A stretch of 64,000 nt of DNA, from positions 8,190 to 72,189 of the forward strand of contig MWEF01000004.1 of the NCBI GenBank assembly GCA_002070905.1, read 5' to 3'. The DNA comes from Tenericutes bacterium ADurb.Bin087. GTDB lineage: Bacteria; Bacillota_I; Bacilli_A; RFN20; CAG-826. Under the pieces are notes generated by a model. That model saw nothing but the letters and a program-made list of their open reading frames with translations. It did no database searches and was not told the origin of the DNA. The translations under genes were made by a program, and so were the position numbers. Shown here in pieces: positions 2,135-7,316 of the stretch (position 1 is the stretch's first letter; the number at the start of each line of letters is the position of its first letter).

Positions 2135-3250
2135 TTAAGTAATCACAAATGGATTACTAATTGAATTTTTAATAATTACATCAAGAACTTCCTTTTCGGC
2201 AGCTGTAATAATTGGACTTCCCTCTTCACCAACATAAGCAAAATGTGAAGGTTCATACCCAGAAATTTTTGTTAATAACCCAAGGGAAACAGCATATCGG
2301 CCAATTTGTAAATCTAAGTGTCGCCCATCTCTAGTAAAATCATTATCCGTTACTATTGATGATTTTCTTGCATTCTGTATTATCGTACCACTCGGAACAA
2401 TAAAACTGATTGAATTCGAATTTGTCATAAGTTCACTTGAAGCGCTAGCAATTGCTTCATACATAGCCTCTTGGCTATTGTTAAAACGTTCATAATATTC
2501 ATTATTGATTGTAATATCATCTTGATAAGCCCATACTTGATGCCACGCTATAGCCGGTAATTTCCTATTATTTTGCCCTAAATAATTTTCAATAGCACTA
2601 CAGAAGTTATTTAAAATATCGTAATCAACTTGATGATGAGCCTGTGTCACATTTTCTTGTAATAGAATTAAGTCCCATTGATTTTGGAATAATAATGCTT
2701 GCTTAAGTGATTTGTTTTCAATATATATCCAGTCCATATTATCAAAATCATATTCCATAAGTTTATAAAGTTTCTTATCTTCAAAAAGATAACGATTATG
2801 TAACTCTAACGTTGCATCTTCAAGCTGTATTGAATAAATATTATATTCAAAATCTTCATTACTTTTAGCAGCAATTAAATTCGAATAATAAATTAAATCT
2901 TCGCTATATGTATCGCCAATTGATAACAGCTTACATGTTTTGCGAAAATTTATCGAAATCGGTACTTCAACAAATACTTCTTCAGCAATGTTTAATGTAA
3001 CTTTTATACTCGTTTGACCTATTTTAGAAGTATCAAATTTCGTTGCATCAATCGTATATTGTTCACGTGTTAGAAGACTATCTTTATATTTAACAACAAA
3101 ATCATTTTCATTAAATGCATCATATAATTGGAAGGTCTTTTCGGTCGTTACAGTTAAGTATTTAGTTTCGAAATCTGGTTCTTTTTGTTTACAGCTAACC
3201 AGCGAAAAAATTAATGCCACTAATACTAAACTAAATTGCGGTCTTTTCAT
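2135..3250 (-). CDS. Lipoprotein with an Ig-like N-domain and a DUF4886 (SGNH-like) putative carbohydrate esterase domain
   Basis: Lipobox LVSC in MKRPQFSLVLVALIFSLVSCKQ. KLLSIGDTYSEDLIYY resembles the DUF4886 start (xLxIGNSFSxD). RDGRHLDLQIGRYAVSLGLL resembles its end (DGxHLxxxGRY). The start codon overlaps the upstream stop (TAATG). Confidence 0.55.
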   Translation of the reverse strand: MKRPQFSLVLVALIFSLVSCKQKEPDFETKYLTVTTEKTFQLYDAFNENDFVVKYKDSLLTREQYTIDATKFDTSKIGQTSIKVTLNIAEEVFVEVPISINFRKTCKLLSIGDTYSEDLIYYSNLIAAKSNEDFEYNIYSIQLEDATLELHNRYLFEDKKLYKLMEYDFDNMDWIYIENKSLKQALLFQNQWDLILLQENVTQAHHQVDYDILNNFCSAIENYLGQNNRKLPAIAWHQVWAYQDDITINNEYYERFNNSQEAMYEAIASASSELMTNSNSISFIVPSGTIIQNARKSSIVTDNDFTRDGRHLDLQIGRYAVSLGLLTKISGYEPSHFAYVGEEGSPIITAAEKEVLDVIIKNSISNPFVIT

Positions 3251-6000: not shown

Positions 6001-7316
6001 TTTGACTCTCTCCTTTTCTTAAGGATTACTAACAATATTTTTAAACCTGTATAGAGCGCAATTGTAACAGGAATGGCAATAAAAATAGCTTTAGCAATGA
6101 TAATTGAAGTATCCACTATGATAGGAGTAAGATAATCGTCATATACATCTTCATCAATATGGCCCTTACCACTTTTAACATTTATTTCATAGACATATTT
6201 GCCTGTATTATTTTCTGCATCTGTTGCTGAAATAGTAACTATATATTTACCCACTAATTTGGGAACAAAATAATTTTCACCATCTAAATAAACAACATCG
6301 CCAAACGGATCAATGATTCCAATTTCATAATCTAAGTTTTCTCCATTATTATCATAGGCAATAAAGTCAGGAATGCGAACCTTGCTATCAACTGTCCCTG
6401 TAGTAACGGGAGTGCTTGTTGGTTCGATTGTTGGTAGTGGCAACACTTTATCATAAGAGATATTTACTCTTAAGTTGCTAACAATCGTTTTCCCCATATT
6501 CATGACATAAAGCCCAACAGCAGGCATTAAATCAGGATTCGCTTCTTCAATTTTTGCTGGATCAGAAAACATGAAATTATCACGTCCAAAGTTTAATTCG
6601 TAATCATTTACTTTCACAAAAATACTATCGCATGTTTTTCCCGCAAAAGTTTTTCTGGTTTTACGCACATAGATGGAGTTTTCTTCACTAGGATCTACTT
6701 CAGTCTCCTCTAAAGTTGAAGGGTTTTTATTGCCGTTAATTCCATCAGGCCAACAAGAATGCCACTCAATGTTATCGGGGTCAGATGGCGGAATCCAGCG
6801 ATTACCTTCCTCACGCACGAAATACTCAACATGCGTTGATCCGTTAATTTTTGCGTAACAGTTAACATCAAATAAGTGACCATTTGAAACCTTTTTAAAG
6901 CCCGTATATACCATCAACCAGTTGTTCGAATCAATATACCATGGAATCAATCCAAATTGCACTTCCCTGCTATCAGGGTCATTAGCAATATAAGCGCTTG
7001 TCGTGGTTCCTTTAAATTTCGCTTCCATTGTGACGGTTGCTTCTCTTATATCAAACTGATTTGTAACCATCGTATTTGATGTGAAATTATACTCAAATTC
7101 ATTATTTTTATTAAATTCAAAAACTTTTAAGGCTTCATCAATTTCCCATCTACTGCCAGGACTATTATCGATCCATACATCGGGCGCATAATTAATTTCC
7201 ATGTCACCAGGGAGGGCTTTAATAATTTCTACGCTCCGAAAATTAGCAGTACACACCGCACTAACAATCAGCAAACTTGTCGCTAGAGCGACTATTTTTT
7301 TTCTAAAGTACCACAT
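5997..7316 (-). CDS. 439-aa secreted, TM-anchored protein: one jelly-roll-like module plus an Ig-like domain (same family)
   Basis: Signal peptide MWYFRKKIVALATSLLIVSAVCTA. VQFGLIPWYIDSNNWLMVYTGF and AVGLYVMNMGKTIVSNLRVN mirror module 3 of the 916-aa protein. The Ig-like segment IPDFIAYDNNGENLDYEI...KYIVTISATDAENNTG is paralogous to LPTYQAFNFNGEIIDHQI...YVINVTAIDEWGNEA. TM plus KKRRESK. Overlaps the next gene by ATGA. Confidence 0.75.
   Translation of the reverse strand: MWYFRKKIVALATSLLIVSAVCTANFRSVEIIKALPGDMEINYAPDVWIDNSPGSRWEIDEALKVFEFNKNNEFEYNFTSNTMVTNQFDIREATVTMEAKFKGTTTSAYIANDPDSREVQFGLIPWYIDSNNWLMVYTGFKKVSNGHLFDVNCYAKINGSTHVEYFVREEGNRWIPPSDPDNIEWHSCWPDGINGNKNPSTLEETEVDPSEENSIYVRKTRKTFAGKTCDSIFVKVNDYELNFGRDNFMFSDPAKIEEANPDLMPAVGLYVMNMGKTIVSNLRVNISYDKVLPLPTIEPTSTPVTTGTVDSKVRIPDFIAYDNNGENLDYEIGIIDPFGDVVYLDGENYFVPKLVGKYIVTISATDAENNTGKYVYEINVKSGKGHIDEDVYDDYLTPIIVDTSIIIAKAIFIAIPVTIALYTGLKILLVILKKRRESK

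Follow-up and report, generated by a model that had tools for sequence, protein, structure and literature searches.

A narrowly distributed family of tandem concanavalin A-like modules on membrane-anchored proteins beside a sugar importer in Tenericutes bacterium ADurb.Bin087

What might three related, membrane-tethered proteins that belong to no named sequence family do when two of them are encoded in the operon of a sugar importer and the third lies close by? The question is raised by a stretch of 64,000 nucleotides from Tenericutes bacterium ADurb.Bin087 (assembly GCA_002070905.1, contig MWEF01000004.1, positions 8,190 to 72,189 of the forward strand), referred to here as the window and numbered from its first letter. 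The window is low in GC (~36%), and NCBI taxonomy lists the organism under unclassified Mycoplasmatota. The three proteins, p916, p439, and p661, are named after their lengths in amino acids (aa), and p916 is identical to the NCBI entry 'hypothetical protein BWX74_00303, Tenericutes bacterium ADurb.Bin087'. They carry modules with a concanavalin A-like (ConA-like) fold, and the answer proposed here—to which we give about an even chance—is that they are non-catalytic, multivalent glycan-binding proteins, held in the membrane as type-I anchored proteins and feeding the adjoining importer.

p916 runs from a signal peptide through modules 1, 2, and 3 and an immunoglobulin-like (Ig-like) domain to a transmembrane helix and a conserved cytoplasmic tail. 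The three proteins and their parts are given below, with the long modules (~250 aa) designated A-type and the short ones (~190 aa) B-type; evidence is in brackets, where AF2 stands for AlphaFold2, HMM for hidden Markov model, and i-E for independent E-value.

3250..6000, minus strand: p916 gene, 916 aa (open reading frame and translation)
5131..5883, minus strand: p916 module 1, aa 40-290, A-type, ConA-like, ~250 aa (35% identity to module 2; AF2 and Foldseek)
4357..5118, minus strand: p916 module 2, aa 295-548, A-type, ConA-like (module HMM i-E 2e-106; AF2)
3778..4338, minus strand: p916 module 3, aa 555-741, shorter, B-type, ConA-like, ~190 aa (all-beta, high pLDDT)
3457..3732, minus strand: p916 Ig-like beta-sandwich, aa 757-848 (AF2 strands; homology to the C-terminal part of p439)
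3253..3414, minus strand: p916 transmembrane helix, aa 863-885, and cytoplasmic tail, aa 886-916 (hydropathy; AF2 helix 863-912)
5997..7316, minus strand: p439 gene, 439 aa (open reading frame and homology)
6444-7145, minus strand: p439 divergent A-type module, aa 58-291 (profile alignment)
about 6162-6428, minus strand: p439 Ig-like domain (homology to p916)
about 6021-6104, minus strand: p439 conserved transmembrane helix, followed by a short basic tail
18138..20123, plus strand: p661 paralogue, 661 aa (homology to p916)
18261-18992, plus strand: p661 module 1 (module HMM)
18993-19757, plus strand: p661 module 2 (module HMM; i-E 5e-81 and 6e-80 for the two p661 modules)

The AF2 model of full-length p916, made with 18 orthologues as input, has a mean predicted local distance difference test score (pLDDT) of 83; in it, three domains rich in beta structure are followed by a small beta-sandwich and, at the C-terminus, by a single long helix (residues 863 to 912). 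Together with the hydropathy scan, it agrees with the Ig-like domain, transmembrane helix, and charged tail that the original prediction, made from the sequence alone, had described in p916, and with its view of the family as membrane-tethered: on both lines of evidence, the proteins are type-I anchored and extracellular. The Ig-like beta-sandwich of p916 has no Pfam assignment. p439 also begins with a signal peptide, and its C-terminal part, comprising Ig-like domain and transmembrane helix, is homologous to that of p916 (i-E 5e-9). In p661, a signal peptide precedes the modules, which are followed by a helical spacer of ~90 aa, a transmembrane helix, and a KKK tail.

How are the modules related? 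Every sequence block quoted in the original prediction was found in the translations, and its central claim, that p916 holds two consecutive modules that align with each other, is borne out by an identity of 35% over 237 aa (E 8e-34) between aa 40-290 (nt 5131-5883) and aa 295-542 (nt 4375-5118), and by profile-profile comparison (probability 100%, E 2e-43). The further claim that p661 repeats modules 1 and 2 in the same order holds too, p916, in its first 545 aa, and p661 being collinear over ~540 aa at 35% identity (E 1e-98). Module 1 of p916 is 45% identical to module 1 of p661 and 34% identical to its own neighbour, module 2; the duplication therefore predates the paralogues. A recent duplication of DNA was considered as the origin of the repeat and rejected, given the 35% amino-acid identity and the presence of both modules in the same order in paralogues. 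When the module HMM was run over the open reading frames of the window, it matched exactly three, as predicted, with two copies plus a partial one, two copies, and one copy.

Module 3 was foreseen as a shorter third module. The shorter unit is indeed present, but its link to modules 1 and 2 is weak (BLASTP E 0.014; hhalign probability 56%, E 1e-4), and it is a shorter sister type, not a third copy. Similarly, p439 does carry one unit joined to the same Ig-like domain and transmembrane helix as p916, but the description of that unit as 'module-3-like' is only partly apt. The two share the strand motif PWY.D.NW, yet alignment of the p439 unit family to the module-1/2 profile is full-length (aa 58-291, 211 columns, probability 97.8%, E 1e-12), and the p439 unit thus bridges the long A-type and short B-type modules.

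As to what the modules are, the answer lies at the level of fold. The AF2 model of a single module is all-beta, with a pLDDT of 94.7, and a Foldseek search of this model against the Protein Data Bank (PDB) gave 49 matches at E <=1e-3; the 50 matches listed are overwhelmingly ConA-like, most with a probability of ~1.0, with E-values from 4e-6 to 1e-3 and a query-normalised TM-score (TMq) of <=0.49. Among these neighbours are the thrombospondin C-terminal domain, the C-terminal domains of glycoside hydrolase (GH) families GH43 and GH32, and GH16 enzymes (VvEG16, NXG1, and Crh5), in addition to the A-domains of Aap and Pls, legume L-type lectins, the carbohydrate-recognition domain of Emp47p, polysaccharide lyase family PL7, and, weakly, the carbohydrate-binding module (CBM) family CBM40. 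The full-length model gave multi-domain alignments with a root-mean-square deviation of ~26 Å, which provide a hint of fold only. The modelled module can thus be assigned solidly to the ConA-like lectin/glucanase fold, at fold level only and with no close structural relative, and the jelly-roll resemblance that had been offered as an analogy is substantiated.

Sequence families are another matter. Pfam-A and NCBIfam scans of p916, p439, and p661 gave nothing significant, and p916 and p439 matched no family even at E <=1. The best Pfam signal was that of GH43_C2 (PF17851) on p661, at 12.9 bits (E 0.088), below the gathering threshold of 22.7. No match to Laminin_G_3, DUF1080, or other Pfam families of the ConA clan was obtained in p916, p439, or 23 wider members (P0020-P0042), and none to SusE (PF14292) or SusF_SusE (PF16411) in the module proteins. 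No relatives were obtained when PDB sequences were searched with p916, the module profile, and the full-length profile; matches to photosystem I at E ~1.5 are noise. The prediction that this family has no name is therefore sustained, since the Pfam, NCBIfam, and PDB sequence searches assign none.

The A-type family is also rare. An exhaustive search of 1.84 billion representative proteins with an HMM profile of the A-type module gave 49 matches at E <=1e-3, and the 26 of these at E <=1e-30 were counted as clear members; those that were traced are of metagenomic origin, and the few with a name are labelled Bacilli or Mycoplasmatota. A word-indexed search returned 19 p916-type clusters, all from metagenomes or metagenome-assembled genomes, lacking precomputed Pfam domains and, in the few cases that are named, labelled Bacilli or Tenericutes. 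When 185,579 species genomes were scanned for a pattern taken from the full-length alignment, only 4 loci came up. Most of the proteins retrieved combine modules in tandem with an Ig-like stalk and a transmembrane anchor at the C-terminus, and most end in a transmembrane helix with a tail rich in lysine or arginine. The only additional Pfam domains in the core members (P0020-P0042) are Flg_new and Big_3. Elsewhere in the window, at 25202-27877 (minus strand), an 891-aa enzyme of amylase/pullulanase type contains a Flg_new repeat, as do members of the module family such as P0020.

The weaker matches (P0043-P0065) are tandem arrays of two to seven B-type modules in lipoproteins or transmembrane-anchored proteins. 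Of these remote B-type relatives, two are fused to CE2 carbohydrate esterases and one to Laminin_G_3 and Metallophos domains, and P0045 gives a sub-threshold signal for GH43_C2, at E 4e-4 and 20.6 bits (gathering score 22.7). A homologue search seeded with an alignment of module-3-type (B-type) sequences returned 0 proteins. The wider B-type family is suggested to be much larger than the A-type one because of a 953-aa protein with four B-type modules in another lineage, described below. The A-type modules, for their part, constitute a new family of very narrow distribution, with a fold that is itself well known.

What, then, surrounds these proteins? On the minus strand, seven open reading frames form a close-packed operon with intergenic gaps of -14 to +12 nt, in the order binding protein, two permeases, p796, p439, p916, and, last, a DUF4886 gene. 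The genes thus sit in a glycan-import operon, the importer being of the ATP-binding cassette (ABC) type. The other genes of this cassette, and a nearby enzyme gene, are as follows.

11497-12966, minus strand: binding lipoprotein of the ABC importer (Pfam SBP_bac_1)
10577-11494 and 9706-10587, minus strand: two permeases of the ABC importer (Pfam BPD_transp_1)
7303..9693, minus strand: p796, a 796-aa orphan lipoprotein (lipobox LVGC)
2135..3250, minus strand: DUF4886 lipoprotein of the SGNH-hydrolase clan (Pfam E 5e-36; lipobox LVSC)
16411..17910, minus strand: GH51-type alpha-L-arabinofuranosidase, between the cassette and p661 (Pfam Alpha-L-AF_C E 4e-36)

The binding protein, p796, and the DUF4886 protein possess lipoboxes, and p439 and p916 start with a signal peptide and, in the hydropathy scan, close with a hydrophobic helix and basic residues after it; all five are therefore extracellular and membrane-held. 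The GH51-type enzyme begins without a signal peptide and is hence cytoplasmic. A gene for a MalK-type ATPase lies near the cassette and is transcribed divergently from it: at 13178-16408 (plus strand), a 306-aa open reading frame without a family lies between two ABC ATPase genes, of which one is MalK-type and has OB and TOBE domains, and the same trio adjoins the cassette in the related locus L003.

Loci L001-L006 and L010 have the same arrangement, with p796-p439-p916-DUF4886 following the binding protein and two permeases, and p661-type paralogues are found near the cassette in relatives. Arabinose genes are among the neighbours: araB, araD, and araA lie upstream of the cassette in L001 (galK and galM lie downstream), while L003 is flanked by GH51, two ABC ATPases (MalK type), and an AraC regulator. 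In the window itself, a sugar catabolism cluster at 42293-46030 (minus strand) includes a match to the L-fucose-isomerase C-terminal domain and an FGGY kinase, and is possibly a pentose route that does not depend on AraA. Locus L011, which belongs to another lineage, reads GH51, binding protein, two permeases, a p796-like gene, the gene for the 953-aa protein mentioned above, galT, galK, and an epimerase-family gene. The product of interest is the following.

L011 11465-14326: 953-aa protein with four B-type modules, an Ig-like domain of p916/p439 type, a proline-rich stalk, and a transmembrane anchor

Its Ig-like domain is homologous to that of p916 (E 1e-9). Because L011 keeps a p796-like protein together with a multi-module, ConA-like, anchored protein made of B-type modules, this pairing predates the A-type family.

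By far the closest solved relative of the binding protein is 6rjy, an 'arabino-oligosaccharids-binding protein' (E 9.5e-34); in the arabinan system of Geobacillus, abnEFJ is the arabinosaccharide transporter (PMC4194401). p796 has neither a Pfam match nor a PDB sequence match of its own. Relatives at 36-38% identity match PF07944 (GH127) at 26-32 bits (cut-off 24.9), albeit over profile positions 71-202 of 376 only; one relative is fused to GH43, and the family numbers at least 83 clusters in several lineages. The GH127 enzyme HypBA1 uses a cysteine nucleophile and a Cys3-Glu zinc site, and membership of p796 in GH127 was rejected, as there is no invariant cysteine in 24 members of the p796 family and p796 itself lacks a PF07944 match. 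Judged by these sequence relationships, p796 probably represents a distinct alpha/alpha-barrel glycosidase family tied to arabinose and galactose loci, and is the likely enzyme of the cassette. For DUF4886, a member of the SGNH clan, no activity is known (PMC9487903).

Scans for regulatory signals were uninformative: no promoter or terminator signal rose above the shuffled expectation, and an Rfam scan found two tRNAs only, with no riboswitch near the operon. A phage or defence origin was rejected, there being no contextual sign of either. Directly downstream of p661, at 20215-22140 (minus strand), lies a gene whose CotH kinase-like product carries a lipoprotein-type signal. Further secreted proteins of the window end, like p661 (18138-20123, plus strand), in a hydrophobic helix with a K/R tail: an alpha-amylase-like protein at 94-2040 (plus strand) and two proteins without a family at 22154-23392 and 23523-25067 (both minus strand). 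C-terminal transmembrane anchoring seems to be the organism's general mode of surface display.

From fold, architecture, and context, we infer glycan binding, and the substrate and the tasks assigned to each operon protein are inferred as well. p916, p439, and p661 would act as lectin- or CBM-like receptors; one point in favour is that many of the ConA-like Foldseek matches are lectins or non-catalytic appendages of glycosidases. Plant glycans rich in arabinose (arabinan, arabinogalactan, or their oligosaccharides) would be kept at the cell surface by these receptors and trimmed there by the lipoproteins p796, a putative alpha/alpha-barrel glycosidase, and DUF4886, a putative esterase. An AbnE-like binding protein would then hand the fragments to the ABC importer, and the cytoplasmic GH51 enzyme and ara gene products would complete the breakdown.

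Several observations weigh against this proposal. No match to a characterised CBM or lectin family came out of the Pfam, NCBIfam, and PDB sequence searches; the ConA-like fold hosts enzymes too, GH16 and PL7 being among the Foldseek matches; and many invariant acidic residues are kept in each module type. A recognisable GH43 endo-arabinanase is absent from the cassette by Pfam scan, so that, in the case of a polymeric substrate, some cassette protein with no assigned function would have to break it down. The galactose genes beside the cassette in L001 and L011 mean that the substrate is not pinned down. Lastly, the very high conservation of the transmembrane helix and tail of p916 is not accounted for by a simple anchor.

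The lack of a GH43 endo-arabinanase can also be read in another way, namely that the A-type modules are themselves catalytic and constitute a new glycoside-hydrolase or transglycosylase family supplying extracellular endo-activity on arabinan or arabinogalactan. Such a role, which we regard as rather unlikely, would suit the GH16 (VvEG16, NXG1, and Crh5) and PL7 structures among the fold matches, the several invariant aspartates per module, and the large size of the modules (250 aa), whose A-type-specific insertion bears W175, D177, and N194. The conserved residues, identified in an alignment of 75 modules at a conserved-column cut-off of 80% and numbered as in p916, bear on it directly. Polar residues conserved across the modules are W175, D177, N194, R215, R221, D224, D251, and T254, of which the first three are located in the insertion; a structural set of glycine, proline, and phenylalanine type comprises G112, F113, Y116, G206, F207, P256, G258, P269, and G272. 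Of the conserved residues, D177, D224, and D251 are acidic. No glutamate passes the cut-off, hence the glutamate pair of GH16, GH7, and GH11 type is absent, and there is no ExDxxE-like motif.

The hairpin 207-233 is similarly instructive. R215 and D224 are predicted from the alignment to pair on one of its faces; the residues of the other face (D208, T210, D214, R221, Q227, and D231) are polar, and they are not the same in modules 1 and 2, which suggests different ligands or sub-sites for the two. Such change in putative cleft-face residues (D208 to R and D214 to I from module 1 to module 2) is a further point against catalysis. p796 is, moreover, the better candidate for an enzyme, and it would be unusual for identical catalytic modules to stand in tandem on an Ig-like stalk. 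The module proteins also evolve faster than p796. Identity between orthologues is 76%–80% for the permeases, 65%–69% for the binding protein, 64%–69% for p796, 46%–50% for p439, and 40%–44% for p916, and the faster evolution of p916 and p439 fits surface binders beside a constrained enzyme (p796).

The last of the contrary observations concerns the membrane end of p916. The transmembrane helix and 31-aa tail, with the motif LWQT...KNKKEAxxAxELNRKNxEKN, form the best-conserved segment among orthologues (column conservation 0.67-0.69, versus 0.57-0.66 for the ectodomains), and the transmembrane and juxtamembrane motif of p439 is likewise conserved. Because a passive anchor needs no such conservation, this hints at specific contacts inside the membrane or with a cytoplasmic partner. 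p439 and p916 might accordingly be scaffolds that join the permeases, and perhaps p796 and the binding protein, through their transmembrane segments and the p916 tail, forming a fixed surface complex—a Gram-positive or wall-less counterpart of the 'utilisome'—in which glycan binding would be secondary or absent. The strict gene order with overlapping reading frames, and the pairing with p796-like genes kept in a distant lineage, would fit such a complex. We nevertheless hold such a scaffolding role to be improbable: p661-type paralogues outside the operon have ordinary short KKK tails, and the large, conserved, lectin-fold ectodomains point to a ligand.

That ligand could in principle lie on plant particles or other cells, as it would if the proteins were adhesins akin to the L-type-lectin-like Aap, Pls, and SraP, unrelated to import. 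The staphylococcal Aap and Pls A-domains do appear among the Foldseek matches, and surface display of tandem modules is compatible with adhesion. The tight and repeated linkage to one ABC-importer cassette and to arabinose genes, however, as well as the translational coupling in the operon, argues for substrate acquisition, and adhesion is accordingly judged very unlikely. Capture of glycans for the importer remains the preferred reading.

It is also conceivable, if somewhat unlikely, that the locus as a whole encodes arabinose-glycan machinery of an undescribed kind, with its extracellular parts outside known CAZy families, its A-type modules forming a new family of CBMs or of jelly-roll glycosidases, and p439 and p916 physically coupled to the permeases by way of their transmembrane segments and the p916 tail. 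If so, it would amount to a 'utilisome'-like complex for capture and import that operates without an outer membrane or cell wall, in uncultured or wall-less Bacilli. Should glycan binding be confirmed, the modules would be a new carbohydrate-binding family, probably specific for arabinan or arabinogalactan structures, for which, to our knowledge, few binding modules exist, and the operon would illustrate polysaccharide capture around an ABC importer in bacteria with lipid- or transmembrane-anchored proteins. Were the modules merely generic domains for anchoring or adhesion, they would represent an ordinary lineage-specific family of surface proteins. With p796, p439, and p916 lacking families and a DUF4886 protein alongside, the cassette is a compact target for new carbohydrate-active functions in digester and gut microbiomes.

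Four known systems offer comparison. The best-ranked bacterial structural neighbours of the modules are the C-terminal beta-sandwiches of GH43 (GH43_C2, PF17851) and GH32 (E 4e-6 to 1e-3, TMq 0.4-0.49), and GH43_C2 is the sole Pfam family with even a sub-threshold sequence signal (in p661 and P0045). These domains are non-catalytic jelly rolls attached to pentose-active systems, as the modules are proposed to be; the modules, by contrast, are ~50 aa larger, arranged in tandem, membrane-anchored, and free of a GH43 or GH32 catalytic domain.

L-type lectins (legume lectins, Emp47p, and Aap/Pls) have the same fold, with TM-scores of 0.3-0.4, and Aap and Pls are displayed on the cell surface in a similar, Gram-positive manner. 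A set of aspartate, asparagine, glycine, and aromatic residues is the L-type lectin repertoire, and the conserved set of the modules recalls the sugar and metal site of lectins. No Pfam lectin family matches the modules, however, and their context is nutrient import rather than adhesion.

The arabinan systems of Geobacillus stearothermophilus and Bacillus subtilis (abnEFJ or araNPQ, the GH43 enzyme AbnA, and the GH51 enzyme AbfA) are matched in the AbnE-like binding protein, the CUT1-type permeases, GH51, and ara genes in the neighbourhood. In place of their GH43 endo-arabinanase, the present cassette has p796, p439, and p916, all without a family, and DUF4886.

Finally, SusE and SusF of Bacteroidota and the CBM-bearing surface proteins of Gram-positive polysaccharide utilisation loci offer an analogy of function. 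The module proteins share no sequence family with SusE/SusF, are anchored by a C-terminal transmembrane helix instead of a lipid, and stand beside an ABC importer instead of SusC/D; common to both are the layout, an Ig-like domain with tandem beta-sandwich modules, and the proposed role, which would be multivalent capture of glycans beside a transporter.

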